Source: an uncultured Ignavibacteriales bacterium
GTDB lineage: Bacteria > Zixibacteria > MSB-5A5 > GN15 > JAAZOE01
Direction: 5' to 3'
DNA length: 64,000 bases
NCBI GenBank assembly: GCA_964523575.1
Contig: CAZGAV010000012.1
Coordinates: 385-64,384, forward strand
Numbering within the stretch: the first letter of the stretch is position 1; every line of letters begins with the position of its first letter. Of the stretch, positions 6,167 through 37,732 are shown in pieces. The notes below the pieces were generated by a model. The model was not told the DNA's origin, searched no databases, and worked only from the letters and a program-made list of their open reading frames with translations. The translations under genes and the position numbers were made by a program.

Positions 6167-6249
6167 ATTGAATCATGAATATCCATGATTCGAATCAAAT
6201 CGACCGACACTTGCCATGACCGCCACGCGGGGACCAAATCCGTATCTTA

Positions 6250-7152: not shown

Positions 7153-7194
7153 CCTGGGCCGAAATTACATTATTATCAATCCATAAGTCAATGC

Positions 7195-11347: not shown

Positions 11348-11374
11348 TGTTTCCGGTTGACACCGAGAGTCGAT

Positions 11375-12156: not shown

Positions 12157-12849
12157 TTGGCCAGAAAAAGCTCATCCGGAATTTACGAATACGCCAAATC
12201 ACTCGGTATCGCGCTGATTTTGGCCTTTATTATCAAGACCTCGATCGTCGAAGCCTATAAAATCCCGTCGTCATCAATGGAAGACACCCTTTTGGTCGGC
12301 GATTTCCTCCTGGCCAATAAATTTATCTATGGGGCGCAAATTCCCTTTTTCGGCTGGCGTTTGCCGTCGATCAGGGAGCCCGAACAGGGCGATGTCGTCA
12401 TATTCCGGGTGCCGATTGACCGGAAAACCAATTATATCAAACGGTGTGTCGCGGTCGGGGGACAGGTCGTCGAAATCAAGGACAAGGAATTATATGTCGA
12501 CGGCAAACGTTTTCCAAATCCGCCCTTTTCCAAATTCACCGACCCCCGAATCCACCCCGCCGGCACCGATCCGCGGGACAATTTCGGCCCTTTTACCGTC
12601 CCCCGCGGACAAATTTTCTGCATGGGCGACAACCGTGACAACAGTTACGATTCCCGATTCTGGGGACCGGTGCCGCTGGATCTGCTTCAGGGCGAGGCAC
12701 TTGTCATCCACTGGTCGTGGGAGCCGGATCGCAATGCCCCGGAAATCAAGCTCGATGACCTGTCGAGCATCCCCCGGTCGGTTTTCTATAATGTCCTGCA
12801 CTTTTTTCAGCGGGTTCGCTGGAGTCGATTGGGCAATATCGTCCGCTGA
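12157..12849 (+). CDS. lepB: Signal peptidase I (paralog 2)
   Basis: IPSSSMEDTL, YIKRCV, MGDNRDNSYDSRFWG. TTG start after a ggagg SD. Confidence 0.92.
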   Translation: MARKSSSGIYEYAKSLGIALILAFIIKTSIVEAYKIPSSSMEDTLLVGDFLLANKFIYGAQIPFFGWRLPSIREPEQGDVVIFRVPIDRKTNYIKRCVAVGGQVVEIKDKELYVDGKRFPNPPFSKFTDPRIHPAGTDPRDNFGPFTVPRGQIFCMGDNRDNSYDSRFWGPVPLDLLQGEALVIHWSWEPDRNAPEIKLDDLSSIPRSVFYNVLHFFQRVRWSRLGNIVR

Positions 12850-13431: not shown

Positions 13432-15741
13432 TCATGGACAGCAGGGGGGCGGGCCGCCTTTGAAAACATAATTTATATCCCAGACGGCGTCGCCGATATT
13501 GATATCGTTGTCGGCGTTGGAGTCGGCGGCCTGGCGGGGGATTGGCGACGGACCGTAGTTGAAAGTATAGTTAATTATCATAACGGCATCCCCGATGTTA
13601 ATACCGCCGTCATGATTGGCGTCGCCGCAGTAATATTGAGGCTCGGCCGTAATATAGAGTGATAGCTCCCGGCTTGTCCCGCAAACGATATCGGCATCGC
13701 CGTCCATATATGTCGTGATACCGGCCCAGTCAACCCAGGGCAGGTTCCAGTATTGCTCGATGCGAATCATGCTTTCTTCGAAGGTGCCGTCGTCGTTGTA
13801 ACCGAAGCAGACTTCCACATTCCCTTCGTACGTGGCCGAGGTTTCGAAATAATAGTAGATGGGGGTAGACACCGGTAATTTCTGATAATACGGCAGGTCG
13901 GGGCCGCCGGACGACATTTCCAGTGAGGTCAGACCGCTTTGTGTAACATGATCGAAGGCGACCTGAATTCCGGGGGTGAAATCCAGCACCACATCATCGC
14001 CGACCGGAGTAGCCAATTCGAAACTGCAGGCGTCGCCGATACCGTCGCCGTCGTTATCGGTCTGGTCGGGGTTGTAAACCATCGGGCAGTTGTCCTCCGG
14101 GCAGGTATTGGCTGGAAATCCAGGGTTGCCGAAACCGTCCCCATCGATATCGGTGCAATCGTCGCAGGCATCGCCGATGCCGTCGCCGTCATTATCAAGC
14201 TGAAAGGGATCATAGGCCAGCGGGCAATCGTCTTCGGGGCAGATATTTTCGGGATAACCCGGATCGCCGTAACCGTCTTCATCGCCGTCAACACAGAGAC
14301 CGTTGAGAAATACATGAAAGTCGAATTCGGGCTGGTTTCGAATCCCGAAATCGAGGTCGCCGTCGTTATCCAAATCGGCGGTCAGTACATCATAGACCTT
14401 GACGTCCGACTCAATCATTCTTTGCCGATAGAACACGCCGTTGCCGTCATTGCGCAAAAGACCCAGAGTCATGTCGCCATATCGGCAGACCGCGCCAAGA
14501 TCGATGTCGCCGTCGCCATCCAGATCACCGTCGCAGATTGAGACCGCCATTTCATTCTGCAGGTAATCGCCGGACGCCGAAAAATCGCCGGAGCCATTAT
14601 TGATCATTATCCGTACACCATAGCTACCGGGGAATCGCACCGCAAAATCAGGAGCGGCGTCGCCGTTGAAATCGGCCGGCAAAATCTGATAAGGGGCATG
14701 GTCCATTGCGATGACATCGCCGTCGGTGAAGGCGCCGTCACCGTCGTTCAAAAACAGGGCGATATGCTCGGAAAAGTAAATCGCGTCCCCGACGGCCAGA
14801 TCGACATCGCCGTCATTGTCGATATCGGCGGCGGCCAGGGCCACCGGGTTACCCTCGATGTCGGCAATCTGGGTTTGCGAGAAAGATCTGTCTCCGTTGT
14901 TGGTTAAAAGGATCAAGATTTCGGAATATCCGACCATGACGGCAATATCGAGGTCACCATCGCCATCAAAATCGGCCGCCTCGAGATCTGCGGGATACCT
15001 TTCTATGGCGATAGACGAGGTCTCGACGGTTCCATCGCCGTTATTGAATAAAAAAGTGACGGCGTAGGGGTTGTCCTTGCATACGGCCAGGTCCGGATGT
15101 CCATTCCCATCGAAATCTCCGGCGACCATCGACTCAGGCCCATCGCTACAGGGGTATGAATCGCCAAGGCTGAAAACGCCATCGCCCCGATTGACCCCAA
15201 TGTGAATCGCATCCAAATTATAATCTGCGACAGCGATATCGAGGTCGTAATCCCCATCGAAATCCAGCATCACAGCGGAGCGGGCATAGATATTCAGGCT
15301 GAAATCATAGCTGGAGTCATACTGCAGGGCCCCGCATGAGGGGTTGTCCGTTTCGACCGTAAACGACCAAACTCGGGGCGCAACGAGAGGCACCCCCAGA
15401 TTCGACAACACGCCCGTGGTAATCGAAACCCACACCAGTTCACCGATATCGAATTCGGCATCGGGAGTGAAGGTGGCGGTTTTCGTGGGACCGTCATAAG
15501 CGATGGAACCGCTGTGCCGGCCGCTGAGAACGCCATTGACCGCAATCGTCAGGTCTGTCAGCGTAACCGCGTCCATGTCGGTATCGAAAGTTATCGAGAT
15601 GTCGGCATCGGTGGGGATCATCAACTCATTTGCGGCCGGTGAGGTGGAAACAATTTGCGGTGATTGTGCGGCTGAGAGCCCGGTCATGAGCCAGATCATA
15701 ACGAGCGCTGCAAGAAATATCCTTTTCTCGGGATAACACAT
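13432..15741 (-). CDS. Secreted protein with Ig-like (SbsA-type) domain, FG-GAP/VCBS propeller repeats, TSP3 Ca-binding repeats and C-terminal dockerin
   Basis: Signal peptide, repeated DFDGDGDLDIAV units, CP..YNPDQ.DNDGDGIGDAC units, and terminal CGDANHDGGINIGDAV..INY.F..GP.P ... ADSNAD.DINIGDAV..INY.FKGGPPP. Start ATG 15741 follows a ggaggg SD. Confidence 0.85.
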   Translation of the reverse strand: MCYPEKRIFLAALVMIWLMTGLSAAQSPQIVSTSPAANELMIPTDADISITFDTDMDAVTLTDLTIAVNGVLSGRHSGSIAYDGPTKTATFTPDAEFDIGELVWVSITTGVLSNLGVPLVAPRVWSFTVETDNPSCGALQYDSSYDFSLNIYARSAVMLDFDGDYDLDIAVADYNLDAIHIGVNRGDGVFSLGDSYPCSDGPESMVAGDFDGNGHPDLAVCKDNPYAVTFLFNNGDGTVETSSIAIERYPADLEAADFDGDGDLDIAVMVGYSEILILLTNNGDRSFSQTQIADIEGNPVALAAADIDNDGDVDLAVGDAIYFSEHIALFLNDGDGAFTDGDVIAMDHAPYQILPADFNGDAAPDFAVRFPGSYGVRIMINNGSGDFSASGDYLQNEMAVSICDGDLDGDGDIDLGAVCRYGDMTLGLLRNDGNGVFYRQRMIESDVKVYDVLTADLDNDGDLDFGIRNQPEFDFHVFLNGLCVDGDEDGYGDPGYPENICPEDDCPLAYDPFQLDNDGDGIGDACDDCTDIDGDGFGNPGFPANTCPEDNCPMVYNPDQTDNDGDGIGDACSFELATPVGDDVVLDFTPGIQVAFDHVTQSGLTSLEMSSGGPDLPYYQKLPVSTPIYYYFETSATYEGNVEVCFGYNDDGTFEESMIRIEQYWNLPWVDWAGITTYMDGDADIVCGTSRELSLYITAEPQYYCGDANHDGGINIGDAVMIINYTFNYGPSPIPRQAADSNADNDINIGDAVWDINYVFKGGPPPCCP

Positions 15742-15972
15742 AAAACCCTCCCATGGTTTTAGGTGGGCCGATGAATCAAAGGTACAGAGTCGTAGCGAAG
15801 ATGAGCGGTGGGGCTCTATTATTAATTTAGGTATAAGATTTATTTCTGTCAACTCTTTTCCACTCCCGTTGCATCCTCAGGTCGACCCCGATGGAGGGGG
15901 AGGAGATTTTGCTTGACTGTTCTCGCCGGACGGCCTTATTTGCCCCTAACCTGAATTGGGCTGTTTATCAGT

Positions 15973-16590
15973 ATGTACCGACTGGAAGCCAAAGACATAT
16001 ATCGGAATTTCGGTTCGCGACGGGTCCTGAGGGATATATCCTTTAGCCTCGCGACCGGCGATTCGCTGGCTATTATCGGCCGGAACGGATCGGGCAAAAC
16101 CACTTTGCTCCGTATTCTGGCCGGGTTGTCCATGCCCACGCGGGGGCAGGTCAATTTCATGGAAAACGACCGCCGGCTTGACCGGGGTGAAGCCAGGAGG
16201 CGGTTATCATATCTCGGTCCGGAATTGACCTTATATGATTCCCTGACGGCGGCCGAAAATCTGAAATTTTTTGCCACCATGCGCGGCCTTTCTCTCGACG
16301 CCGATCTCGTCGAAAAAATTCTCGGTATGGTCGGGCTCGGCGGCCGGGGAGAGGATTTTTATCGAGCTTACTCATCGGGCATGAAACAAAGATTGAAATA
16401 CGCCACGGCTTTGCTCAATGATCCGGCCTATTTACTACTGGATGAGCCGACCAGCAACCTCGATGATGAAGGCAAGAAAATCGTGTCTCAAATAATCGCC
16501 CGCCAGAAGGAAACCGGCATCCTGATTCTGGCAACCAATGAAAAAGAGGAATACGGTTTTGCCGAAAAACAGTATCGGCTTAACGACTAA
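15973..16590 (+). CDS. ccmA: Heme exporter ATP-binding subunit CcmA
   Basis: Walker A GRNGSGKTT, signature YSSGMKQR, LLDEPTSNLD. First gene of a ccm cluster. Confidence 0.88.
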   Translation: MYRLEAKDIYRNFGSRRVLRDISFSLATGDSLAIIGRNGSGKTTLLRILAGLSMPTRGQVNFMENDRRLDRGEARRRLSYLGPELTLYDSLTAAENLKFFATMRGLSLDADLVEKILGMVGLGGRGEDFYRAYSSGMKQRLKYATALLNDPAYLLLDEPTSNLDDEGKKIVSQIIARQKETGILILATNEKEEYGFAEKQYRLND

Positions 16591-17251
16591 AGCGCTGGCT
16601 GTCTGGCGCAAGGATTTGCTTTGCGAATTCCGGACGCGCTATGCCATCAATGCCATTCTGCTTTTCGGAGTGACGACTTTGATCGTTGTCTCCTTCTCGG
16701 TGGGTCAGAAAAATCTGCCACCCGAGGTTTACGCCGCCCTCTTCTGGATCATTATCTTCTTTTCAGCCATGTCGGGGTTGGCCCATGTTTTCGTTCGCGA
16801 AGAAGAGTCGAAGACGGCCACGGTGCTGCGTTTGACATCCGATCCGACGCCGGTTTATCTGGGGAAATTGGGCTATAATGTCGTTCTGCTGGCCCTGCTC
16901 CAGGTTATCATTGCGCCGCTTTTCCTGGTGTTGACCGATGCCGTTTGCAGCGAACCGGCTCTCTTCATCGTGATTATTGTCATCGGATCGATAGGTCTGG
17001 CCGGCGCCACGACGTTGATTGCGGCCATTATCGCCCGGGCCAGCGTCAAAGGTGCGCTTTTTGCCGTCCTTTCGTTCCCCATTTTGCTTCCCCTGTTGAT
17101 CGGCGTCATCAACGGCACTACCAAGGCTATGACTCCCAAAGGCGGTGGCTGGGCCGCCGCAACTTCCGATCTCCAACTATTGGTCAGTTACGCGGTCGTC
17201 ATGATCACCGCCAGCCTTTTGCTTTTCGAATATGTCTGGGAAGAAGAATAA
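16538..17251 (+). CDS. ccmB: Heme exporter permease CcmB (start uncertain)
   Basis: A..RKDL..EFR, a multi-TM body, and LFAVLSFPILLP. Confidence 0.88.
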   Translation: MKKRNTVLPKNSIGLTTKALAVWRKDLLCEFRTRYAINAILLFGVTTLIVVSFSVGQKNLPPEVYAALFWIIIFFSAMSGLAHVFVREEESKTATVLRLTSDPTPVYLGKLGYNVVLLALLQVIIAPLFLVLTDAVCSEPALFIVIIVIGSIGLAGATTLIAAIIARASVKGALFAVLSFPILLPLLIGVINGTTKAMTPKGGGWAAATSDLQLLVSYAVVMITASLLLFEYVWEEE

Positions 17252-17318
17252 AAAAGGGAACTTAAAGAAAAAGAGACTGTTTTAATCTTTCTATTAATAC
17301 AAACGCCGACAGTGGCGT

Positions 17319-17993
17319 ATGGAATATTGTGTTATGGTGTGGAAAGTCATTTTATTTTTGTTGATGTCGTGGGTTATCGTGGGTGCGTTCGTTTTCCCGG
17401 CGCCTCAGAAGATGATCGGCGAAGCCAGCCGTATTTTCTATTTTCACGTGCCCCAGGCCTGGGTGGCGGTTTTGGCTTTTGTCGTCTCCATGGTCGCCTC
17501 CATCCGCTATTTACGCAAAGGGGAGAGTCTTGACGACGACCGGGCCCGGGTCGCGGCCGTGCTGGGGTTGATATTCAGCCTTCTGGCCACCGTCAGCGGT
17601 TCTATTTTCGCCAAGATCACCTGGGGTTCATATTGGAACTGGGACCCGCGCGAGACATCGATACTGGTATTGCTTCTGATTTACGGGGCCTATTTCGCCC
17701 TGCGGTCGGCGGTCGAGGGCGAATCCCGAAAAGCCCGGCTGGCGGCTGTTTATGCCATTTTCGCTTTTATCACCGTGCCCTTTCTGGTCTTCGTCGTGCC
17801 GCGCGTTCTGCCCTCCCTGCACCCTTCTGACTCGGTCGTCAATTCTTCGGGGCAATTCACGATGGGCGGTTTTACGGCGGCGGTTTTCTTTTCGTCGCTG
17901 GCGGCCTTCACCGGCTTGTTTGTCTGGATTTACCGATTGACCATGAGGATCGTAACCGTCGAACGCAAGATTAATGAGGAGTCGCTCTCATGA
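17319..17993 (+). CDS. ccmC: Cytochrome c biogenesis heme chaperone-loading protein CcmC
   Basis: FYFHVP, the WWD-type motif WGSYWNWDPRET, and a conserved SLHP His. Confidence 0.92.
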   Translation: MEYCVMVWKVILFLLMSWVIVGAFVFPAPQKMIGEASRIFYFHVPQAWVAVLAFVVSMVASIRYLRKGESLDDDRARVAAVLGLIFSLLATVSGSIFAKITWGSYWNWDPRETSILVLLLIYGAYFALRSAVEGESRKARLAAVYAIFAFITVPFLVFVVPRVLPSLHPSDSVVNSSGQFTMGGFTAAVFFSSLAAFTGLFVWIYRLTMRIVTVERKINEESLS

Positions 17994-18100
17994 CCTCCAA
18001 TTATGCCGTGCTGGCCGTGACCCTGATAATCTGGGTTGGCATATTTCTGTACTTATTGTCATTGGACCGCCGGACCCGAAAAATCGAGGAAGAACATTGA
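17990..18100 (+). CDS. ccmD: CcmD-like single-TM microprotein (36 aa; not in the ORF track)
   Basis: MTSNYAVLAVTLIIWVGIFLYLLSLDRRTRKIEEEH*. It overlaps the ccmC stop (ATGA) and the ccmE start, and has a gagga SD. Confidence 0.8.
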   Translation: MTSNYAVLAVTLIIWVGIFLYLLSLDRRTRKIEEEH

Positions 18101-18483
18101 AAGCCAAATTCGTCATAGGAATAATCATCATCGGTGTTTTTGCCGTCTGGGGCATCACCTCCTTCATGTCCACTTCGATTAAATATGTGCCCCTGGCCGA
18201 CGTCGCCAATACCTCCGGCACGATTCAGGTCATGGGCAAAATCGATTTTGATTCCGTCCATTACGACACCGACCGGTCCCGGATGATCTTCGATGTGACC
18301 GATCTTGAGAACCAGTCCAGCGGTCGGCGTTTGAAAATTATTTACTCCGGGGTCGTTCCGGGGAATTTCGATCAGGCGACTTCGGTTGTCGCCCGGGGAC
18401 AATATCAGGACGGCGCTTTGCTGGCCGATCAACTACTCGTCAAATGCCCCTCCAAATATCAGGGGCGGGATGGAGAAACCTAA
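18097..18483 (+). CDS. ccmE: Heme chaperone CcmE, CxxxY variant
   Basis: N-terminal TM, an OB-fold with V.Y.G..P..F, and terminal LLVKCPSKY. TTG start at 18097. Confidence 0.88.
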   Translation: MKAKFVIGIIIIGVFAVWGITSFMSTSIKYVPLADVANTSGTIQVMGKIDFDSVHYDTDRSRMIFDVTDLENQSSGRRLKIIYSGVVPGNFDQATSVVARGQYQDGALLADQLLVKCPSKYQGRDGET

Positions 18484-18486
18484 TCC

Positions 18487-20685
18487 GTGAATATTGGAAT
18501 TCTGCTGATTCTGCTGGCCTTTGCCGGGTTATTGATCAGCACCCTCAGCTTTTTTCTGGCGGCTCGTGGTAAGGCCCGTTTCATCAATCTGGGCTACGCC
18601 AGCTATAAATACTTCGTCATGTTCATCGGCCTGGCTTCGGCTCTTCTGCTCTACTACTTTTTGTCCGGTGATTATTCCTTTCGCTATGTCTATGAATATT
18701 CCTCCTCCGACTCCTCGTTTTTCTATCTGATCTCCGGCTTTTGGGCCGGCCAGCGCGGCACCTACCTGCTATGGGCGCTGATGGTATCTCTGCTGGGTTT
18801 CTACATTCTCAAACGCGGCCGGGAATACACGCCTTATGCCATGTTCTTCTACGGGCTGGTCAATATCTTCTTCATCGTCATGCTCTTGGTTTTGTCGCCC
18901 TTTGAGAAACTCCCGATGGCTCAACCTGACGGCGCCGGTTTGAATCCGCTTCTCAAAGATCCCTGGATGGTTATCCACCCGCCGGTGATCTTTCTCGGTT
19001 ATGCTGCCGTGGTTATTCCCTTCGTGATTGCGCTGGCGGCCTTGGTGAAGAAAAAATACGACGATTGGCTGGCGATTTCCTTCGGGCCGGCTGCATTGGC
19101 GGCCGTGATGCTGGCGGCCGGAAATATCATGGGTGGTTTCTGGGCCTATAAAACGCTGGGGTGGGGCGGTTACTGGGCCTGGGACCCGGTTGAAAATTCT
19201 TCCTTTATCCCCTGGATGACCTCACTGGCTTTACTTCATGGTCTCCTGATCGAACGCCGCGACGGGGCTTTGAGAAAAACGAATCTGTTTCTGGCCCTAT
19301 TCACTTTTTTGCTGGTGATCTACGGCACTTTCCTGACCCGATCCGGAGTTCTGGCCGATTTCTCAGTGCACAGTTTTGTCGATCTGGGTGTCAATGTTTA
19401 CCTGATCGGTTTTATGAGTCTTTTCATCGTGCTTGGCCTGGTCATTTTCTTCGCCCGTATCGGGCAGATCAAAGGACCGTCGATAAACATGTCGTTTACT
19501 TCGCAGGAATTCGCCCTGTTGATCTCGATGTGGGTCTTGCTTCTGATTGCCCTGGTGGTTCTCTCCGGGACCTCCTGGCCGCTGATCACGACCCTCTTCG
19601 GCCGTCCGGAAACGGTTGATACCGCCGTTTATACCCGAGTCACTTTCCCGCTGGCTATCGTTCTGGGTTTCTTCCTCGGATTCTCTCCGTTCCTGGTTCG
19701 GATTGGGACGCCGGTCGGCCAGATTCTTAAAAAAGTTATGCCGGCGGCGATCATATCTATCATCATCACCGGATTCGCCTATGCCGTGGGTGTCAAGGAT
19801 ATAGCGTATCTATTTTTTATTTTCTTCGCATCGACGGCGGCGTTATCCAACCTGCTTGCAGTTTTCAAGTACTTCCCGGGTGACCTATGGCATGCCGGGG
19901 CTCAGCTATCGCATTTCGGATTTGCCCTTATGTTGATCGGAATTCTGGGGTCGTCGGCCTATTCATCCAATCAGAAATTGACTCTCGACCGCGGCCAGGA
20001 CGCCCGGGCCTATGGTCTGGATATTACCTATGATGGCATGGCCGGAGACATCACGACTCCGGACAATGAAATTATCCTGACCATCAAAGATGGCACGCAC
20101 CGTTTTGAGGCCCGGCCCAAATTATTCTGGGCGCAACGTATGGAAGGCTTGATGAAAAAGCCTTATATCCTGCGCTATTTGTCCTACGATCTCTATCTGG
20201 CGCCGGAGCAGATACAGGAACCCAACACCTCCGGCGGCTTGAAACTCACCAAGGGCCAGACGGCCACTCTCGACGGTTATTCGTTGAAATTCACCGGATT
20301 CGAGCAGGGATCTCACAGCGGGGGCGGCGATATGACTTTCGGGGCCAGAATCGAAGTGATCGATTCTGCCGGACATACCGGAACCACTTTGCCGGCCATG
20401 GAGTTCGTCGCCGATCAGAAGATCAAGTACCATGACACGCCGTTGCTGATGGGCGTCAATAATACGCCGGTGCGGCTGGAAAAAATATTCGCTGACGAGG
20501 GCGCGGTGCTGATTTCCATTCCCGGTTTGACCTCGGCGGGTTCGCCGGATCGCCTCATTCTCGAAGTTTCCAAAAAGCCGACCATGAATGTTCTCTGGGG
20601 CGGCTCGATTCTACTCGTGCTGGGCGGTCTGTTGACGGTGCGCCGGCGCTGGGGGATGTCGGCTTTTGGCGGCGGAAACAATTGA
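18487..20685 (+). CDS. ccmF: Cytochrome c heme lyase CcmF
   Basis: GLNPLLKDPWMVIHPP, WAYKTLGWGGYWAWDPVENSS, TFLTRSGVL..SVHSF, HFGF. Confidence 0.95.
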   Translation: MNIGILLILLAFAGLLISTLSFFLAARGKARFINLGYASYKYFVMFIGLASALLLYYFLSGDYSFRYVYEYSSSDSSFFYLISGFWAGQRGTYLLWALMVSLLGFYILKRGREYTPYAMFFYGLVNIFFIVMLLVLSPFEKLPMAQPDGAGLNPLLKDPWMVIHPPVIFLGYAAVVIPFVIALAALVKKKYDDWLAISFGPAALAAVMLAAGNIMGGFWAYKTLGWGGYWAWDPVENSSFIPWMTSLALLHGLLIERRDGALRKTNLFLALFTFLLVIYGTFLTRSGVLADFSVHSFVDLGVNVYLIGFMSLFIVLGLVIFFARIGQIKGPSINMSFTSQEFALLISMWVLLLIALVVLSGTSWPLITTLFGRPETVDTAVYTRVTFPLAIVLGFFLGFSPFLVRIGTPVGQILKKVMPAAIISIIITGFAYAVGVKDIAYLFFIFFASTAALSNLLAVFKYFPGDLWHAGAQLSHFGFALMLIGILGSSAYSSNQKLTLDRGQDARAYGLDITYDGMAGDITTPDNEIILTIKDGTHRFEARPKLFWAQRMEGLMKKPYILRYLSYDLYLAPEQIQEPNTSGGLKLTKGQTATLDGYSLKFTGFEQGSHSGGGDMTFGARIEVIDSAGHTGTTLPAMEFVADQKIKYHDTPLLMGVNNTPVRLEKIFADEGAVLISIPGLTSAGSPDRLILEVSKKPTMNVLWGGSILLVLGGLLTVRRRWGMSAFGGGNN

Positions 20686-20815
20686 GTCGCGGAAGTTTCC
20701 ATTGCACAAAAACTTTTCTTGAGCGTCAAAAGGAAAAACCGATAATTTTGCTTGCACGTCGCGGGCAAAGATGTTATGTTTATCGCCTGTTTTGGAATAT
20801 TATCGGGAGGAATAC

Positions 20816-21997
20816 ATGAAAGCAGTCGTTTCTGCCCTCTTGGCCTTGAGCCTGGTTCTGTTAATCAGTTGCACCAACGACGACAATACCGTCGAACCCA
20901 TCGAGAAGTATCATTCGGTCTACCCGGTGTTTCATCTGAAAATCGATAACGGTCATCGGACTTTCGGTATCGATTCCCTGCAGTTGACGACCAATCCGGG
21001 CATCGGCTGGCCCGGTCCGGTTTATACCGATATACAGGGATTTGTCGGCACTTTGGCGGGCGGGACATTCGTGGACCGCGTCGATACCATTATAAACCCC
21101 GACACGACGATCTATGACACGACCTGGAAAGTCTATGGCTTCCAGCCTTCGACGACCTACAACTTCTCATTCTCACGGAGCGAAGCGTTTATCTGGCGCG
21201 ATTCATTCCGGGCCGATTACGCCATTTCGGTCGATTCTTCCTGGTTGTTGTTCTCGGCCGATACGGTGCGGGTTACCAAGGCGCTGAATCCGGCCGACCC
21301 TCCCGAGACGGTTCTTTATAAAGTCGTTTTGAATCCGGCCTCGAATTTAACGCCGAAGCCGGATGATACCGTTATGCAGAATCTGTTGATCGGTTATTGG
21401 TTCGATTCCGCATACGTAATTTCCAATTCTGACGACACGGTCGCTTACCCTCCGGATTCGACCCGGGACAGTACTATCATGTGGGGACTCTGGCACCGCG
21501 TCGATTCTTTCTACCTGCCCCCTGATTCCAATATCTGGTGCCAGCTCGATTCCATCGTGGAAGTTCAGGATACGATCTACGACATTTACCAATTCCCTTC
21601 AATCGTAACCGATTCGGTATATTATTACAGTCAATGTAACAAGAAGATAGATACTGTCCAGCAACGCATTTACCGTCATTATAACTGGGGCGTATATCCC
21701 GGAGGGGATCATTCGGCGACTCCGATTCCTTCGTTCGATACGACGATCCACTTCACCTACCCCGACACGCTTAAGACTCTCGCGGTCAATCATGACGGCC
21801 TATCGATTCTGGTACCGATCGAAGACCCGGACACTCATGATACCACCTGGGTCCAGAAAGACGTCACCATCGAATTCATATATAATGGTGTGTCTCAGTC
21901 GGTTGATAGTCTGGCCTTGAACCTGACCCTGCCGCCCGTGGAAGTGTTCCCGCAATACGATTTCATTATCCGTGAGGTGCCTTCGGGCAAGAAATAA
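20816..21997 (+). CDS. Hypothetical lipoprotein, Asp/Thr/Ser-rich
   Basis: ATG after a ggagg SD, lipobox LISC, no recognisable family. Confidence 0.7.
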   Translation: MKAVVSALLALSLVLLISCTNDDNTVEPIEKYHSVYPVFHLKIDNGHRTFGIDSLQLTTNPGIGWPGPVYTDIQGFVGTLAGGTFVDRVDTIINPDTTIYDTTWKVYGFQPSTTYNFSFSRSEAFIWRDSFRADYAISVDSSWLLFSADTVRVTKALNPADPPETVLYKVVLNPASNLTPKPDDTVMQNLLIGYWFDSAYVISNSDDTVAYPPDSTRDSTIMWGLWHRVDSFYLPPDSNIWCQLDSIVEVQDTIYDIYQFPSIVTDSVYYYSQCNKKIDTVQQRIYRHYNWGVYPGGDHSATPIPSFDTTIHFTYPDTLKTLAVNHDGLSILVPIEDPDTHDTTWVQKDVTIEFIYNGVSQSVDSLALNLTLPPVEVFPQYDFIIREVPSGKK

Positions 21998-22020
21998 GGT
22001 TCGCATTCGACGAATTATCG

Positions 22021-22050
22021 AAACCCCGCCCCAAAAGGTGGGGTTTTTTT
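22021..22050 (+). terminator. Intrinsic terminator
   Basis: aaaccccgcc-ccaaaa-ggtggggttt followed by a T run. Confidence 0.8.
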
Positions 22051-22051
22051 A

Positions 22052-22080
22052 TTGACAGATTCTATTTCTGCTCATATTAT
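22052..22080 (+). promoter_or_regulatory. sigma70-type promoter for the riboswitch/btuB transcript
   Basis: TTGACA-N17-TATTAT. Confidence 0.75.
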
Positions 22081-22093
22081 CATCTCAATAACA

Positions 22094-22259
22094 CATTTCG
22101 GTCCCGAAAGCGGTTAATAGGGAAGACGGTGAAAGACCGTCGCAGCCCCGCTACTGTAATCGGCTACGAAAGGGCCAATATTCCACTCTCCCGGGTCGGC
22201 CGGGGGGGGAAGGGGCCCCGGTAGGCATGATGCCGTAAGCCAGGAGACCTGCCGGAATG
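22094..22259 (+). ncRNA. Cobalamin (B12) riboswitch
   Basis: Conserved elements aatagggaa..cggtgaaa.accg..gcagccccgctactgtaa and the B12 box aagccaggagacctgcc, with P1 closure catttcgg/ccggaatg. It lies upstream of a TonB-dependent receptor. Confidence 0.93.
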
Positions 22260-22296
22260 GTAACTCGTAATTCGACAGCCCTCGCGGGAGGGGGAG

Positions 22297-24642
22297 TTGA
22301 AGTTGTCCCGAACCCCGAAAGCGGCTGCCGGGAATTTTTTTGGCCCGATTCCCGACAGATCATTCCGAAAAGCGGCGGTCATTTATCGGCTGATAATTCT
22401 GTGCCTGATTCTTGGCTTCGGTCACATGGCGCAGGCCCAGACTACAGTCAGAATTTCCGGCTGTGTTTATGACGCCGTCGACGGCCATCCCCTCCATCAC
22501 GCCCTGATTACCCTGCGCGGCACCGACTTCGCCGCCGTCAGCGATCAATTCGGCCGTTTCGAATTGGAAAATATCCCCGACGGCCGCTATCGTCCGGAAG
22601 TATCGGCTTTCGGTTATATTTCGCAGACGACTGAGGCGATTGACGTCGTGGTCGATATCACGCGCCGGATAACGGTGCATCTCGAACCCCGGTATCACGA
22701 CATGGGGCGAACCGAGGTTATCGGAGAAGCCGCCCCGTCCCTTACCGGTGATATTGAGATCATCGATCAGCAAGCTATTCAGAGTTCGAATGCCCATACT
22801 CTAGCTGAGGTCCTCGACCGGTTGGAGGGCGTCTATATCCAGGATTCCGGCCCAGCCGGCGGCAAAAAACAAATCAGCATCCGCGGCAGTGCCGCCAAAC
22901 ATGTTCTGGTGCTCCTCGACGGGCGGCGTCTGAATCCGGCCGGAAGCGGCGAGGCCGATCTTAATAGTATTCCGTTGGAAATGATCGAAAAAGTGGAGGT
23001 GTATAAAGGCGGGGAGTCGGCCCGGTTCGGCGCCGACGCATTGGGTGGCGTGGTAAACATTATAACGCAGGCAGGGCCGGGTCGGAGCCGCCCGGAGTTG
23101 AAAGCTCATACCTATCGCGGCCGTTGGGATACCGACCTTTACGATTTGACCCTGATCGACCCGGTTCGGTTCAAGGGCCTGACAACCAAGGTCACTTACG
23201 GTTTCCGTGGCTCCGAAGGCGATTTCGATTACAATTACACGGGGGCCGTCTTTCCGCGTCAGGGCGTGGAACGGGTTTACGCCGGTACCCGGGCCAACGC
23301 CGATTTCGAAAGCCGCAATTATTTTATATCGAGCCTTTATCAGGCGCGGCCGGGCACCAGTCTCAATTTTTCGGGTCAGCTCTATCGGTCCGATCAGGGT
23401 TTGCCGGGTAAAGCCTCGCAACCCGATTCCACCAGCCGCAAAACCGACGATCGTATTCTGGCCGGTATCGGAATGGAGCATCAGTTTTCGCCGAAACAGG
23501 TCCTTCATATGTCGCTTGGCTATTCTCGTCTGAAACAGGAGTTCGAGAACGAAGCGGGAAGATCTTCCTATCATAGCCGCTATACCAATGATATCGCAGA
23601 TATGGAAATCTCCGGCCGCAGTCGGTTTTGGTCCGGCAATGAAATCGGCGGCGGTGTCGCTCTGCGCCGCGATATCCTGTACCATGATGAAATACTCCAT
23701 CCCGAACGGAGTATGGGCCGAACCATACGCGATAATATCGGATTGTTTGCTTCCGACCGCCAGACCTTTGACCTCAACAGCTTGCCTGTCTGGGATTTGG
23801 CCGCCGTCGATGTGTCGCTTCGCCGGGATCGTACCGACACCCGTCAGGACAAATTAGCCAGCGCCGAGTCGCCGTCAACGAATCATCTCTCCCATTGGTC
23901 GCAAAAGATCGGAGCCTCGCTTTCCGCCGGCGTCCGACTTCGTCTGGTCGTTCGGGGCAGTTATGGAACTTCCTATCGCTTGCCGGAGATGAACGCTTTA
24001 TTCTGGAAGAATGATATCCGGTCGCAGGGCAACCCCGACCTGAAACCGGAACGATCCGAACATTCCGACGCCGGCTTTGAGATAAGTCTGGATAAACCGA
24101 TCAGAATTTCGGCCGGCCTGACTTATTTCCACAGCCATGTCAATGAGATTATCATCTGGCGTCCCAGTTCGCCGCTGGGGATATGGACGCCTGAGAACCT
24201 CGACGCCGCCCTGATCACCGGGCATGAGGATTTCGTCCAGATCGGTCTGTGGGATGATCGGGTGCGTCTGAGCTACGGCAATACCATCACCAATCCCCGG
24301 AACAAATCGCGAGGATCCTCCAACTATAATAAGGTCCTGACCTTCCGGCCCCATTATGTCACCAGCCTTGACTGCGATCTCCGGTTCTGGATACTTCGCG
24401 GTGCCTATCAGATCCGGATGGCCGATATCCGATATCTTCTTGACGCCAACACCCGCTGGTACGGCGCTTATCGCGTCGATAACGCCGATTTCGGCATCCA
24501 GACCGAAATGTCCCGTGTCAAAATCGAGGCCGGGTACCGGGTGCGCAATCTGCGGGGGGAGAACTACGAATTGATTGCCCAGTATCCGATGCCGGGACGG
24601 GAATGGGGCGTTGACCTGTCCGTATCCTGGCGATTGGAATAA
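22297..24642 (+). CDS. btuB: TonB-dependent receptor, BtuB-like, with N-terminal carboxypeptidase-regulatory-like domain
   Basis: Plug motifs SIRGS...VLVLLDGRRL, IEKVEVYKGG.SARFGADALGGVVNIIT, then NPDLKPERS and the C-terminal YPMPGREWGVDLSVSW. Function is inferred from the riboswitch. Confidence 0.85.
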   Translation: MKLSRTPKAAAGNFFGPIPDRSFRKAAVIYRLIILCLILGFGHMAQAQTTVRISGCVYDAVDGHPLHHALITLRGTDFAAVSDQFGRFELENIPDGRYRPEVSAFGYISQTTEAIDVVVDITRRITVHLEPRYHDMGRTEVIGEAAPSLTGDIEIIDQQAIQSSNAHTLAEVLDRLEGVYIQDSGPAGGKKQISIRGSAAKHVLVLLDGRRLNPAGSGEADLNSIPLEMIEKVEVYKGGESARFGADALGGVVNIITQAGPGRSRPELKAHTYRGRWDTDLYDLTLIDPVRFKGLTTKVTYGFRGSEGDFDYNYTGAVFPRQGVERVYAGTRANADFESRNYFISSLYQARPGTSLNFSGQLYRSDQGLPGKASQPDSTSRKTDDRILAGIGMEHQFSPKQVLHMSLGYSRLKQEFENEAGRSSYHSRYTNDIADMEISGRSRFWSGNEIGGGVALRRDILYHDEILHPERSMGRTIRDNIGLFASDRQTFDLNSLPVWDLAAVDVSLRRDRTDTRQDKLASAESPSTNHLSHWSQKIGASLSAGVRLRLVVRGSYGTSYRLPEMNALFWKNDIRSQGNPDLKPERSEHSDAGFEISLDKPIRISAGLTYFHSHVNEIIIWRPSSPLGIWTPENLDAALITGHEDFVQIGLWDDRVRLSYGNTITNPRNKSRGSSNYNKVLTFRPHYVTSLDCDLRFWILRGAYQIRMADIRYLLDANTRWYGAYRVDNADFGIQTEMSRVKIEAGYRVRNLRGENYELIAQYPMPGREWGVDLSVSWRLE

Positions 24643-24680
24643 GATGCGTCCCACTAATGGTAAACATGATGGAGATATCC

Positions 24681-25901
24681 ATGTCATATAGAATAATAAT
24701 TGCCGGTCTTGTTGTCCTGAGTCTGGCGGCGGCGGTCATGGCCGCCGATCCGACAGCCTATGTGATCAATACGTCGGGGGAGACCCTGTCAAAAATTAAT
24801 CTGAGCACCGGGGCGGTAACCAACAATATCCTGCCGCTTGGATCCGATGTGAACTGTTACCCCAATCAAATCGTCGTCCGCGACTCCCTGGCCTATGTGA
24901 TCGCCTCCGGTACTGATGAATTGCAGATTATAAACCTCAACAGCTCCGCCACCGTCGGCTGGATTGTCTTCAGCCCGGCCGGTTGCAATCCCTATTGGAT
25001 GGCTTTTCTGAGTCGTCAATATTTATATGTCAGCCTGATGGTTGATAACAGCCTGGCCAAAGTTGATCTGACCGCCGGTCAGGTCGTTAAAACTGTGCCG
25101 GTGGGGCAATCACCGGAAGGGGTACTGGCTTTTGATAACAAAATCTATGTCGCGGTCACCGGCTATGATTATTCGACATGGAGCTGGGGCCAGGGCAAAG
25201 TGGCCGTTTATGACACGAATATCGACACTGTCATCGCCGAAATCGACGTCGGCACTAATCCTCAATTCCTTGCCTCAGATGCCAATGGACGGATTCATGT
25301 CGTCTGTACCGGAAATTATTGGGATATCCCCGGCGCGATTTATATCATCGACCCGAACACAAATGAGGTCATCGACAGTATTGCTATCGGCGGACAACCC
25401 GGCCAGATAGCCATAACTGCCGACAATACCGCCTTTCTGGCCGCTGGCGGATGGTCGGCCGACGGCGAGGTCCTGATGTACAATGCCCTGACAGGAGAAA
25501 TCTATCATGACGGCGGCAATCCCGTTTATGTCGATTCCGGCGCAACCGGGGCAGTCGCTTTTCAGGATTCGACGGTTTTCATCTCCACCTTCGGCGACCG
25601 CATCAATCGCCTGAATACCGGGGGCGAGAAAATTCAGACCTATTTTATGGGTGACGGCCCGGTACATATCGATTTCAATTATCATCCCGGCGACGCCAAT
25701 GGAGATTGGGCGGTCAATGTTGCCGACGCGGTCTATCTGGTCAATTATATTTTCAAATCGGGGCCGGCTCCGGCTCAGCCCGCCTGGCGGGCCAATACCA
25801 ATGATGATATGGCTATCGACGTCGGCGACGCGGTTTATTTGATCAACTATGTTTTTCGCGGGGGGCCGCCTCCCAAATTCGGCCCTACCTGGGTGCGATA
25901 G
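24681..25901 (+). CDS. Secreted YncE/BtuG-like beta-propeller with C-terminal dockerin
   Basis: Repeated propeller units (VG.SPEG, VGTNPQF, IGGQPGQI, MGDGP) and a terminal GDANGDWAVNVADAVYLVNYIFKSGPAP... dockerin. Start ATG 24681 after a ggaga SD. Confidence 0.8.
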   Translation: MSYRIIIAGLVVLSLAAAVMAADPTAYVINTSGETLSKINLSTGAVTNNILPLGSDVNCYPNQIVVRDSLAYVIASGTDELQIINLNSSATVGWIVFSPAGCNPYWMAFLSRQYLYVSLMVDNSLAKVDLTAGQVVKTVPVGQSPEGVLAFDNKIYVAVTGYDYSTWSWGQGKVAVYDTNIDTVIAEIDVGTNPQFLASDANGRIHVVCTGNYWDIPGAIYIIDPNTNEVIDSIAIGGQPGQIAITADNTAFLAAGGWSADGEVLMYNALTGEIYHDGGNPVYVDSGATGAVAFQDSTVFISTFGDRINRLNTGGEKIQTYFMGDGPVHIDFNYHPGDANGDWAVNVADAVYLVNYIFKSGPAPAQPAWRANTNDDMAIDVGDAVYLINYVFRGGPPPKFGPTWVR

Positions 25902-25962
25902 GTTCGCACGGGCGGGGAAGACTCCCGAAATCGGCTTATGAGGAAATTTATTTATTTTGTTC

Positions 25963-25991
25963 TTGACAATAAAATCCAAAAGAATTATAAA
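25963..25991 (+). promoter_or_regulatory. Strong sigma70-type promoter about 410 bp upstream of the next CDS
   Basis: TTGACA-N17-TATAAA, preceded by an AT-rich UP-like tract. Confidence 0.6.
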
Positions 25992-26402
25992 ACAGGATAG
26001 AAAATGTATCGTATTATATGATGCATGAGTCATACTTGCCGTCGACGACAAGCGGCGGCACTACATTGTATTATCCCTCCCAGATAAGGCGCCGTGTCGG
26101 TCAAACACTCGGCGCCTTACCATTTATAGACAATCATCGTCGGCCATAGGTTTCCTGCCGTGACGCTTTCTTTGATGAAAGCCGGCATGGATTATATTTA
26201 CTCCCGGTAGCGCAACAGCTTCCGAAGATAGTGGCGGCGCCGACAAATTGTCCAATAGTGGATAAAAAACTGCGTAAATGATTGAAAATAGACCGGCCCC
26301 GGCTTTAGCCGGCGGCTCGAAAAGGGTTGTCTTGACGCTGGAAAAAGTGTAGTTTAGGAAGACCTGACGACAATAAAATTTATGTGATAAATATCCGGGA
26401 GG

Positions 26403-28817: not shown

Positions 28818-29951
28818 ATGTTTCGAGCGATTATTTTTGCCCTGGCCGTAATTCTCGCCGGCCCTCCGGCCGGCTATTCGGCCGAACAGCCCGAAGCCGA
28901 GATCGTGACGCCCTATTTCGGGTTGTCGATGCCTGTTCCCGATACCATACCGCCTCTGACTATAGAAAACAGGAAGGAATTGAGGCTCCTGAATAAGGAA
29001 TTCATTGCGGTCATGGCCGTTGACGGCGGCGGGGAAGTGCGGAAGATCGAGTACGATTCGGTTATGGCCGAATACATAAAGCCGCTGATGAAGGATTTGA
29101 GGAAAATATCTTTTCATTTTACCGACGGGCATGCCCTTGATTATCCTCTGCAGGTTCCTTTCGAGATCAGATTTTCGGGGGTTCCCGGAGGCGGAAAAAA
29201 AGTGCGATTGAAATTTCCTCTGGCGCCGGACACTACCTCGGATGCAAGTTTACTGGATTCATATTTTGATCGAAACGATGTCGATCCGCCGGAAGTGATC
29301 GATATCCCGCCGATATTCTACAAAGTTGATCCTCAAAAAGACAATGCCGAATATTTGACGATTACGGCCCGTGTGTTTCTGGACGAAAAGGGCCAATTGC
29401 AGAATATAAGTTTCCCGATATCGGGGCAGGATATGATGACGCACGCGGTCCAGATGGGGCTGATGAACGCCCGCTATTCTCCGGCGCGGATCAGAGGTGA
29501 GCCGAAGGCCGCCGATTTTCTTCTGACTTTCCGCATTTTCGATAATCTCAAATATCCTTTTTCCCCCCTGCGCAAGGGCGATACGACTGAAATCGAGCCG
29601 ATCACCGCCGGCTATTTTATGATCCGCTATTTCAACCCACTTGATATGGCCATACCGGCGTTGCCGCGGACACATGGGAATGGCTATATCCATACGGCTC
29701 CGTTGGCTTATCGACGGACGGGAACGGCCGAGGTTGTTCTGCGCATTGACTCGGAAGGAAAAATAAAAGGTGTCTCGGTGGCCAGGGCCACTCAGAGGTT
29801 GACTGATATAATTGCACCGGTGATTAAGTTGATCGATTGGTATCCCGCCAAAGATCGAATGGGCCGGCCGGAACCGTTTGTGGGACGGATATTTCTGACG
29901 TTCGAGGCTTCGCCGAAAGTCGTATATAATGCCGAATGGCTGGCCCCATGA
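28818..29951 (+). CDS. Secreted protein with degenerate TonB C-terminal-like domains
   Basis: Signal peptide, then segments such as ARVFLDEKGQL..ARYSPARIRGEP..F...FRI and VVLRIDSEGKI..WYPAKDRMGRP..I...F. Confidence 0.55.
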   Translation: MFRAIIFALAVILAGPPAGYSAEQPEAEIVTPYFGLSMPVPDTIPPLTIENRKELRLLNKEFIAVMAVDGGGEVRKIEYDSVMAEYIKPLMKDLRKISFHFTDGHALDYPLQVPFEIRFSGVPGGGKKVRLKFPLAPDTTSDASLLDSYFDRNDVDPPEVIDIPPIFYKVDPQKDNAEYLTITARVFLDEKGQLQNISFPISGQDMMTHAVQMGLMNARYSPARIRGEPKAADFLLTFRIFDNLKYPFSPLRKGDTTEIEPITAGYFMIRYFNPLDMAIPALPRTHGNGYIHTAPLAYRRTGTAEVVLRIDSEGKIKGVSVARATQRLTDIIAPVIKLIDWYPAKDRMGRPEPFVGRIFLTFEASPKVVYNAEWLAP

Positions 29952-33840: not shown

Positions 33841-34599
33841 GTGAAACAGACAATCTTCGTAACTCTGAACGCGTTGATTTCCTTTGCCATCGGTTATGTC
33901 ACATGGGGAATCATCTTGAAGAATACTGAAGAGGGCACTCTGCCCCATTCGATTTACCAGGGCGGGCCTCTGGTCGTCCTGCTGATCATGATTCTGCTGA
34001 TGCTTATGTCTTTCGTGGTGGAACGGTTCCTGTCCCTGCGCGTCGCCAAGGGCAAAAGTTCCGTCCAGGTGTTCTTCAAGAACCTGATCGGCCATCTTCA
34101 GAACAACGATTTCGAGTCGGCGCTGGCGGCCTGCGACAAGCAGCGCGGCACGACGGCCAACGTTCTTCGGGCCGGTATTGAGCGATACATGCGCGTCAAA
34201 GACGATAACACCATGGAATCCGAGAAGAAGATGGCCGCGACACAGGCGGCTATCGAAGAAGCCAACGCGCTGGAAGGCCCGCTTCTGGAGCGCAACCTGA
34301 TCGCCATGTCAACGATCGCCTCGATCGCCACCATGGTCGGTCTGCTGGGTACGACCATCGGTATGATCCGCGCCTTTGCGGCCACCGGCCATGCCTCCGG
34401 CGGTGTTATCGATGCCACTCAGCTGGCGACCGGTATTTCCGAAGCGCTGGTTAACACCGCCGGCGGTTTGACTTCCGGTATTCTCGGTATTTTCTTCTAT
34501 AACTATTTTGTCAACAAAGTTGACTCTTTCAACTACACGACCGATGAGGCTACCTACGAGGTGCTTCAGTTGTTGAAAGCCAAGGAGGCGGCGAGTTAA
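33841..34599 (+). CDS. exbB: MotA/TolQ/ExbB proton channel protein
   Basis: IATMVGLLGTTIGMIRAF and GISEALVNTAGGL. Confidence 0.92.
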   Translation: MKQTIFVTLNALISFAIGYVTWGIILKNTEEGTLPHSIYQGGPLVVLLIMILLMLMSFVVERFLSLRVAKGKSSVQVFFKNLIGHLQNNDFESALAACDKQRGTTANVLRAGIERYMRVKDDNTMESEKKMAATQAAIEEANALEGPLLERNLIAMSTIASIATMVGLLGTTIGMIRAFAATGHASGGVIDATQLATGISEALVNTAGGLTSGILGIFFYNYFVNKVDSFNYTTDEATYEVLQLLKAKEAAS

Positions 34600-35070
34600 A
34601 TGAAGATTAAAAAGAAAAGGCGCCTCAGCATCAAGATCGATATGACCCCGATGGTGGATATCGCCTTTCTTCTCCTGATCTTTTATATGACGACGACTCA
34701 GTTCAAACCGCCGGAGAAGAAGAAGGTCGATTTGCCGACGTCGCATTCGCAGGTTTCCCTGCCGGATAAGGATGTCATCAACGTCACGGTGACGGCCGAC
34801 GATTCCATCTTCGTCGATTATATCGTCAAAAAAACGGTTAATATCGACGGCCGCGATATCACGATGCCGGTGCGTATGTATGACGAGGCGACTACTGGCA
34901 CGGTCGGCGCCCTGATTAACTCGGCCCGAATTCGCAGTCCCCGGGCCTTTCTGGTGATCAAAGCCGACAAGCAATCGAGTTACGGGGTGATGGAAGGGAT
35001 AATGAAAACCCTTCAGGAACAACATCTCTCCCGTTTCCAGATAATCACGCTGAGTGAACAAGAGACTTAA
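34600..35070 (+). CDS. exbD: ExbD/TolR family protein 1
   Basis: IDMTPMVDIAFLLLIF (conserved Asp) and IKADK..SYG. Confidence 0.9.
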   Translation: MKIKKKRRLSIKIDMTPMVDIAFLLLIFYMTTTQFKPPEKKKVDLPTSHSQVSLPDKDVINVTVTADDSIFVDYIVKKTVNIDGRDITMPVRMYDEATTGTVGALINSARIRSPRAFLVIKADKQSSYGVMEGIMKTLQEQHLSRFQIITLSEQET

Positions 35071-35091
35071 CGTTTAAGGTGGTGATTTAAC

Positions 35092-35718
35092 ATGGCTGGT
35101 GCCGATGTAAGTGCAGACAGGCCAAAAGGCGGAAAGAAACAAGGCCTGCGCCGTCCCAAAAGGCGGCTCTCTGTCCGAATCGATATGACTCCGATGGTCG
35201 ATATCGCGTTTCTCCTGCTTATTTTCTATATGGTAACGACGGTTTTTTCGATGCCGCAGGCGATGGAAGTCAACCTGCCGCCGGCGTCTGAGGAAGAAAC
35301 TCAGATCAAAGTCAAAGACAGCAATCTTCTGACCATTCATGTCGACGGAAAAAACCAATTCTACTGGAATATCGGGCGCGAGTTGCCGGTGCCGATGAAA
35401 GCCGATTCCCTTCGAACCCTCATGGTCGACCAGAACAAGGCCAATCCCAAATTGAGCACGCTCCTTATCATCAACAAGGAAGCCCGTTATAAAACCATGG
35501 TTGACATCCTCGACGAGATCGATCTCATAGAACGTTCCTTCAATAACGCCACGGCCAAGGAACTGGGCGTCACTCTGAAAGATTTCAACGATCCCGATAA
35601 TGAGCGGTACGAGGAATTTAAGGCCAAGAAGTTTTCCTACCGCTATGCCATGTCACCCTGGGAAGACCGCGATTCGAGAATTATCGAAAAGGTCCTCTCA
35701 TTGCATGGGGGTGAATAG
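35092..35718 (+). CDS. exbD: ExbD/TolR family protein 2
   Basis: IDMTPMVDIAFLLLIF and ARYKTMVDILDE. Confidence 0.9.
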   Translation: MAGADVSADRPKGGKKQGLRRPKRRLSVRIDMTPMVDIAFLLLIFYMVTTVFSMPQAMEVNLPPASEEETQIKVKDSNLLTIHVDGKNQFYWNIGRELPVPMKADSLRTLMVDQNKANPKLSTLLIINKEARYKTMVDILDEIDLIERSFNNATAKELGVTLKDFNDPDNERYEEFKAKKFSYRYAMSPWEDRDSRIIEKVLSLHGGE

Positions 35719-35720
35719 CT

Positions 35721-37704: not shown

Positions 37705-37728
37705 CGACTATAAAATATAAGTTATAAT
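37701..37728 (+). promoter_or_regulatory. sigma70-type promoter for the ORF B-tonB2 unit
   Basis: TTGACG-N16-TATAAT, overlapping the exbD3 stop codon. Confidence 0.7.
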
Positions 37729-37732
37729 ATTT

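Follow-up and report, generated by a model that had tools for sequence, protein, structure and literature searches.

Vitamin B12 is a scarce and shared micronutrient, and BtuG-type capture proteins are viewed as a special asset of gut Bacteroidota in the competition for it. In Bacteroides thetaiotaomicron, beta-propellers of the BtuG class bind corrinoids with picomolar or tighter affinity and form a lid complex on BtuB. A propeller gene that adjoins the gene of a TonB-dependent transporter is also present in Escherichia coli, where yncE lies next to the gene of YncD (PqqU); YncE is periplasmic, is not under riboswitch control and has no C-terminal module. BtuG was described as exclusive to Bacteroidetes by Wexler et al. 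(2018; PMC6143338), whose search spanned only 313 gut genomes, and likewise in a 2024 preprint (bioRxiv 10.1101/2024.02.16.580637), and a 2026 review gives its distribution across gut Bacteroidota only (PMC13616437). The present contribution deals with a 64-kb stretch of DNA of a salt-marsh Zixibacterium (the window, to which all coordinates refer), on which a cobalamin riboswitch precedes the genes of a BtuB-like TonB-dependent transporter and of a BtuG-like propeller with a dockerin-like C-terminus. We assume that the two genes form a corrinoid-uptake operon in which a non-lipidated BtuG-type propeller is kept at the cell surface by its C-terminal tag, and we put the probability of this reading at roughly 65%.

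The riboswitch-linked transporter and propeller genes

The elements follow each other on the plus strand in the order terminator, promoter, cobalamin riboswitch, BtuB-like transporter and BtuG-like propeller with the dockerin-like C-terminus:

22020-22047, plus strand: rho-independent (intrinsic) terminator of the upstream lipoprotein gene, an 11-bp stem with six GC pairs followed by a T run
22052-22080, plus strand: sigma-70-type promoter, TTGACA-17 nt-TATTAT, 11 of 12 consensus positions matched
22082-22270, plus strand: cobalamin riboswitch aptamer (Rfam RF00174; 106.1 bits, E 1.4e-25, model positions 1-189 of 189)
22271-22296, plus strand: short expression platform with the purine-rich ribosome-binding stretch GGGAGGGGGAG, as read from the sequence
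22297-24642, plus strand: BtuB-like TonB-dependent transporter of 781 residues, with a TTG start at 22297 or 22303
24643-24680, plus strand: 38-nt spacer between the transporter and propeller genes, with a GGAG motif and no terminator
24657-25901, plus strand: propeller open reading frame (ORF), encoding a 406-residue protein, with the likely ATG start at 24681 behind the GGAG motif
24681-24743, plus strand: Sec signal peptide for signal peptidase I (SPase I), MSYRIIIAGLVVLSLAAAVMA, with cleavage between MSYRIIIAGLVVLSLAAAVMA and ADP
24744-25679, plus strand: seven-bladed YVTN/YncE-type beta-propeller, BtuG-like, residues 22-333 (AlphaFold2 model, Foldseek, profile search)
25680-25901, plus strand: C-terminal dockerin-like module, residues 334-406, up to the stop codon, with two calcium-loop-plus-helix repeats

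The promoter is the top-scoring promoter-like site in a scan of 6 kb, which gave 13 sites in total where 5.9 are expected by chance. It starts five bases past the terminator, which in turn follows the stop of the lipoprotein gene at 21997 and sets this gene apart from the B12 operon. A single nucleotide lies between the end of the promoter and the start of the riboswitch model match, which is of full length and far above the gathering score of 31.5 bits. Both elements had been named in a preliminary description of this DNA, and both are indeed found where it placed them. The ribosome-binding site is reached 14 nt past the aptamer and the TTG start of the transporter at most 27 nt past it. This leaves an expression platform that is too short for a terminator, and, judged from the spacing alone, the riboswitch would act by translational control. 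Folding of 22082-22330 revealed no significant or interpretable switch (z -1.31). The spacer between the two genes is short and free of a terminator, which implies that transporter and propeller are co-transcribed.

The transporter consists of a signal peptide, an N-terminal CarboxypepD_reg domain (residues 53-130), a plug (residues 149-252) and a barrel (residues 342-754), and it qualifies as a TonB-dependent transporter by its matches to the plug (PF07715, 96.8 bits) and to TonB_dep_Rec_b-barrel (PF00593, 87.1 bits). Its top two NCBIfam families are the BtuB equivalogs TIGR01779 (TonB-B12) and NF007926, which are aligned over their full length. In a sequence search of the PDB, E. coli BtuB was the best match (4.5e-24), and BtuB1-3 of B. 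thetaiotaomicron were matched, too. The earlier assignment as a BtuB-like receptor can therefore be kept, with the caveat that the score falls short of the curated BtuB threshold. Neither btuF nor btuCD was detected within the operon by ORF and Pfam scans. An ExbB-ExbD-ExbD-TonB cluster (33841-36446, plus strand), followed by a second ExbD/TonB pair (37045-38864, plus strand), is located 9-14 kb downstream of the transporter gene; the products of both groups are candidates for the energy supply of the transporter.

Conservation of this arrangement was determined for relatives of the propeller, of which the database holds 445, at least 120 of them with 49-99% identity and a length of about 405 residues. 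All members of the latter set that bear a specific taxon name are Zixibacteria. A context scan with one genome per species returned 80 loci. Of the 57 dockerin-tagged orthologue loci with any upstream DNA, 56 have a transporter homologue directly upstream of the propeller; the median gap between the two genes in these 56 loci is 28 nt, with an overlap in 10 of them. Wherever the upstream DNA of a dockerin-tagged locus is complete, an Rfam Cobalamin aptamer precedes the transporter (42 of 42 loci, nearly all Zixibacteria). The same linkage is present in a metagenome-assembled genome of Acidobacteriota (L058), in Zhuqueibacterota (L062), in KSB1 (L064 and L077) and in Caldithrix (Calditrichota; L066), as well as in two further loci whose taxon labels are doubtful (L063 and L067). 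A permuted order of riboswitch, propeller and transporter was found in L065 and in L070, the latter belonging to Eisenbacteria. The labels 'uncultured Ignavibacteriales' and 'Ignavibacteriaceae' ('binchicken' records, e.g. L002, L005, L008 and L011) look unreliable and were left out of the phylum counts; the propellers of many loci labelled in this way are 50-64% identical to the Zixibacteria protein. Since the pair is kept under one riboswitch in many lineages and despite a change of gene order, a chance neighbourhood is very unlikely. The comparison supports a conserved riboswitch-controlled operon of transporter and propeller, in agreement with the pairing proposed for this locus beforehand. 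One locus, L055, contains two cobalamin aptamers 600 nt apart (2607-2852 and 3444-3665).

The combination of riboswitch, BtuB-type transporter and BtuG-fold propeller is thus the rule in Zixibacteria and occurs in several other sediment phyla. Given its spread over these phyla, corrinoid uptake with the help of a lid is probably a common trait in anoxic sediments.

Fold, C-terminal module and predicted anchors of the propeller family

The propeller protein just passes the Pfam YNCE family (27.3 bits, cutoff 27.1). Its signal region is free of cysteine, as it is in the 25 orthologues that were aligned with it, and a lipobox is therefore absent. In the alignment of all 26 sequences the SPase I signal is conserved, no member has a lipobox and the C-terminal module is strongly conserved. 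A YncE-type propeller with a signal peptide and without a lipobox, as named in the preliminary description, is hence encoded. An AlphaFold2 model, for which an alignment of orthologues was used, reached a mean predicted local distance difference test (pLDDT) score of 91.5 and a predicted template modelling (pTM) score of 0.89; its 28 strands form seven four-stranded blades, followed by three helices. When the model was compared with the PDB by Foldseek, the first 15 chains were BtuG1, BtuG2, BtuG3 and 3DSM, mostly in the cobalamin-bound form (E 2e-20 to 4e-18, target-normalised template modelling (TM) scores 0.75-0.80), with a root mean square deviation of about 2.8 Å across about 345 columns of the superposition. 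The generic archaeal YVTN propeller 1L0Q came next, and E. coli YncE was far lower (about 1e-12). A profile of the 26 orthologues matches BtuG chains colinearly across blades 1-5 (2e-10); the higher profile score of 1L0Q arises from several overlapping repeat matches. In the PDB sequence search the best match of the propeller was the archaeal S-layer YVTN propeller 1L0Q (5e-13). By its predicted fold the window propeller is nearer to B12-bound BtuG1/2/3 than to any other PDB entry, and the assignment as a BtuG equivalent, which had been suggested before the structural comparison was run, is well supported.

The corrin contacts Q93, N107, S131 and Q219 of BtuG2 align with the invariant residues N62, S76, N103 and N193 of the propeller family, and the mapping of BtuG2 W194 onto the family is ambiguous. 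Corrin contacts vary among true BtuGs (bioRxiv 10.1101/2024.02.16.580637). In the AlphaFold2 model the last strand (327-332) closes the blade that is begun by strands 25-52, and both ends of the propeller meet there. A tether at the C-terminus would consequently sit near the exit of the N-terminal lipid linker of BtuG, and presumably positions the propeller domain close to where that linker would.

The C-terminal dockerin of the preliminary description is present as well, with the caveat that the protein scores 21.0 bits with Dockerin_1 (PF00404), slightly below the cutoff of 22.9. Each of the two repeats is composed of a loop, D/N-x-N-x-D-x3-N/D-x2-D, and a helix; the repeats read DANGDWAVNVAD-AVYLVNYIF and NTNDDMAIDVGD-AVYLINYVF, and the C-terminus in this way has the tandem repeat expected of a type I dockerin. 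In the orthologue alignment an invariant W-R separates the two repeats and a GPxW tail ends the module. Helices are predicted at residues 347-358, 368-371 and 381-393 of the AlphaFold2 model. Dockerins of the PDB match the module at E 0.001-0.02, and it is conserved in all Zixibacteria propeller orthologues found.

A profile hidden Markov model (HMM) of this tag ties together four unrelated secreted proteins of the window, all of which have the module at the extreme C-terminus. In addition to the propeller these are:

48093-50351, plus strand: M1 aminopeptidase with the same C-terminal tag (Dockerin_1 32.6 bits; tag HMM E 8e-24)
13432-15852, minus strand: FG-GAP/Big_5 protein with the same C-terminal tag (Dockerin_1 33.1 bits; tag HMM)
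45518-47842, plus strand: BACON_2 protein with the same C-terminal tag (tag HMM)

The presence of one tag on an M1 peptidase and on FG-GAP and BACON proteins indicates a general extracytoplasmic tag and not a device specific for B12; as judged from these sequences, the module is a general tag for secreted proteins in the source organism. The tags of the FG-GAP/Big_5, BACON_2 and M1 proteins finish in short cysteine-containing tails (CCP, CGNP and GCVD), those of the propeller family in GPxWVR. A search of 1.84 billion representative proteins with the tag profile yielded 38,182 matches at E <= 0.001. Among the top low-copy matches the module was located at the extreme C-terminus in 69 of 86, and 35 of the 150 top matches contained five to twelve matched stretches; some multi-copy proteins add subtilase, peptidoglycan-binding or T9SS (type IX secretion system) domains. 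The database proteins P0278-P0292 and P0366 have 4-12 dockerin-like modules in tandem. In cellulosomes it is the other way round, with tandem cohesins and single dockerins. A separate search of a protein database with the tag profile gave mostly short fragments from contig ends. The idea that the tag is a stand-in for a missing T9SS was rejected because Zixibacteria loci encode proteins with T9SS-type C-terminal domains and because some proteins carry both modules.

Members of the propeller family differ in their ends. A Sec signal together with a dockerin-like C-terminus is found in the Zixibacteria propellers and in L055 and L058. In KSB1, Caldithrix, Zhuqueibacterota and Eisenbacteria the riboswitch-linked propellers have a greater length and a T9SS-type sorting domain (matches to Por_Secre_tail, CHU_C and/or FlgD_ig) in the position of the dockerin-like module of the window protein. 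Sorting domains of this type were detected in the orthologues L062, L063, L066, L070 and L075; no Por_Secre_tail or CHU_C sorting domain was detected in the window propeller by the Pfam scan. More distant and short homologues of about 335 residues (L059, L060, L068, L069, L071, L072, L078 and L079) have the cysteine of an N-terminal lipobox, as in BtuG, and the Rfam scan revealed no riboswitch in their loci. Taken together, these sequences show one propeller family with interchangeable predicted anchors, either a dockerin-like module, a T9SS C-terminal domain or a lipobox. Since T9SS domains are a mark of proteins exported across the outer membrane, riboswitch-linked members that carry them would act outside the cell. 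A corresponding location of the Zixibacteria protein is thereby favoured, and the comparison argues for a family that acts outside the outer membrane. The claim of a propeller without a lipid anchor but with a dockerin-like C-terminus holds for the window protein and for the orthologues aligned with it. The exchange of anchors within the family supports the assumption that means other than a lipid tether or sort the propeller, but it does not point to a cohesin.

Proposed function and alternative readings

The following model is proposed for the operon. At low intracellular cobalamin the riboswitch would allow the leader to be translated, and one transcript would give rise to the BtuB-like transporter and to the Sec-exported, seven-bladed BtuG-type propeller. 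After export of the propeller, its tag would hold it close to the outer surface of the outer membrane. There, by analogy with the BtuBG system of Bacteroides, the propeller could form a lid on the transporter, to which it would pass on the corrinoids bound in its central cavity. The products of the downstream TonB-ExbBD genes (33841-36446) could energise this transport step. The likeliest role of the tag would be retention at the surface, or assembly there via protein-protein contact, and its partner might be a domain of cohesin type, the transporter or some other surface protein. It is conceivable, and we put this forward only tentatively, that the module is a new lipid-independent, calcium-dependent tether of the 'lid' to a cohesin-like scaffold or to the transporter, and that the tag serves the general surface display of secreted proteins in Zixibacteria and in uncultivated diderm phyla related to them. 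If so, the B12 trap would be the first cargo of the tag system whose ligand and partner can be predicted. Uncultivated bacteria abound in dockerin-like tags, and a tagged protein of this kind is a tractable entry to the role of the tag.

Several observations weigh against the uptake model. The transporter stays below the NCBIfam BtuB equivalog cutoffs for both families (156.1 versus 599.7 bits and 123.2 versus 836 bits). The residues N62, S76, N103 and N193 are equally invariant in homologues without a nearby riboswitch, so that the contact mapping does not discriminate and is no proof of a B12 site, and W149 and W272 of BtuG2 are not conserved in the propeller family. In one locus (L039, a complete Zixibacteria chromosome, 5875-7233), the sole exception, the propeller has neither an adjoining transporter nor a riboswitch. 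When transcript evidence was sought, the window DNA matched only metagenome DNA runs (from salt marsh, soil, wetland and freshwater sediment), and no RNA run was listed. No Pfam Cohesin match was present in any of the window ORFs scanned over the 64 kb. A Sec signal combined with a dockerin-like module is, finally, no recognised route across the outer membrane, which leaves room for a periplasmic location.

The preliminary description had gone one step further and had tied the propeller to a cohesin system. In such a display the module would bind a true cohesin on an outer-membrane or S-layer scaffold, and the B12 trap would be part of a cohesin-dockerin assembly. The canonical repeat signature of the module, its matches to PDB dockerins, the Dockerin_1 scores (21 bits here, 32.6-33.1 on two other tagged proteins) and its retention in all Zixibacteria orthologues found are in agreement with this proposal. 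The link to a cohesin system, however, found no support in the 64 kb examined: neither the window ORFs scanned nor nine multi-dockerin proteins of the database had a Pfam Cohesin match, and the tag is general across four proteins. Dockerin-like modules are, moreover, reportedly common in genomes that lack cohesins. The Ser-Thr pair with which type I dockerins contact the cohesin is replaced by V-A and V-G at the respective positions of the module. A literature search found no paper that links Zixibacteria with dockerins or cohesins. We consider a cohesin-displayed trap unlikely.

Even less probable is a propeller that stays in the periplasm, as is reported for E. coli YncE, and takes over the corrinoid from the transporter, as BtuF does. 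The module would then dock to a periplasmic element, e.g. the CarboxypepD_reg domain of the transporter. The propeller has a Sec signal alone, btuF and btuCD are not in the operon, the transporter bears an N-terminal beta-sandwich extension, and one database protein joins 12 dockerin modules with a peptidoglycan-binding domain, all of which would suit such a shuttle. On the other hand, the riboswitch-linked orthologues of other phyla carry T9SS sorting domains as marks of outer-membrane export, the other tagged proteins of the window (M1 peptidase, BACON and FG-GAP) are of typical surface or extracellular kinds, and the closest fold is that of the extracellular lid BtuG and not of YncE. That the propeller is a mere passenger behind btuB, i.e. 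a generic YVTN surface protein or enzyme unrelated to corrinoids, might be read from the top rank of 1L0Q among the PDB sequence matches, the undiscriminating contact mapping and the lipoprotein-type homologues without a nearby riboswitch, but is highly improbable in view of a linkage to riboswitch and transporter that at least five phylum-level lineages share and that persists where the gene order is changed, of the gene overlap in 10 loci and of BtuG as the top structural match.

Some neighbours of the corrinoid operon are described for completeness, among them one further gene that was considered as a possible partner of the tag:

20771-21997, plus strand: lipoprotein with the lipobox LLISC, directly upstream of the B12 operon and separated from it by the terminator

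This lipoprotein, the gene of which was also delimited as 20816-21997, has 37 homologues, all from one Zixibacteria subclade, and is found at the same position in 9 loci. As a candidate scaffold or cohesin carrier it gained no support: it has no Pfam match, its AlphaFold2 model reached a pLDDT of 64 and the best Foldseek match had an E value of 0.011, with TM scores of at most 0.14. Further upstream lies a complete cytochrome c maturation operon (ccmA, ccmB, ccmC, ccmE and a ccmF fusion; 15973-20685, plus strand), whose synteny with the B12 operon is shared by about 14 relatives, and tandem genes for signal peptidase I (S26) are located at 11357-12067 and 12157-12849 (plus strand). Downstream, just a 500-bp spacer (25902-26402) separates the propeller from an E1 dehydrogenase gene. 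Close relatives (L001, 7219-11158; L003, L005, L009 and L010) have at least one extra gene at this place, and one of the extra genes behind the propeller in relatives is an ORF on the minus strand whose product has a C-terminal domain of T9SS type. A secreted protein of 377 residues (28818-29951, plus strand) has a weakly TonB_C-like C-terminus (21 bits, under the cutoff) and is syntenic behind the E1 dehydrogenase gene in several relatives (L002, L003, L008, L056 and L081).

Comparison with known systems

The closest described system is the BtuB-BtuG pair of B. thetaiotaomicron (BtuG1/2/3; 8BMX, 8P97, 8BLW, 8BAI and 3DSM), which likewise combines a seven-bladed propeller with a BtuB-type transporter and a cobalamin riboswitch. 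The window propeller differs from BtuG in that it has neither a lipobox nor an N-terminal linker and ends in a dockerin-like module instead. Sequence identity amounts to only about 17%, and the aromatic cavity residues W149 and W272 of BtuG are not conserved. The transporter of the window bears the N-terminal CarboxypepD_reg domain, and the host belongs to the Zixibacteria. The YncE/YncD (PqqU) pair of E. coli also places the gene of a YncE-type propeller next to that of a TonB-dependent transporter, but the structural match of the window propeller to YncE is poorer than that to BtuG (Foldseek about 1e-12 versus 2e-20).

With the type I dockerins of cellulosomes (2CCL, 4DH2 and 1DAQ) the module shares duplicated calcium-loop-plus-helix repeats of about 22 residues and the C-terminal position on a secreted protein. 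In contrast to these dockerins, it occurs in a diderm and non-cellulolytic host, with no cohesin found in the window ORFs scanned, its recognition positions differ, and it is found on a peptidase, on BACON and FG-GAP proteins and on a putative protein of nutrient capture. The choice-of-anchor families and the cargo of T9SS provide another parallel, as there, too, one family of functional domains is combined with sorting or anchoring signals that vary between lineages; in the propeller family these signals include a dockerin-like module with a putative sorting or anchoring role. With its lipid, T9SS and dockerin-like variants, the propeller family may be regarded as a natural experiment in the attachment of a lid. 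In its proposed mode of action the locus resembles the BtuBG system of Bacteroides, but it is no typical member of that family; new is a BtuG-fold partner of BtuB outside the Bacteroidota, in which a predicted dockerin-like or T9SS anchor takes the place of the lipid.

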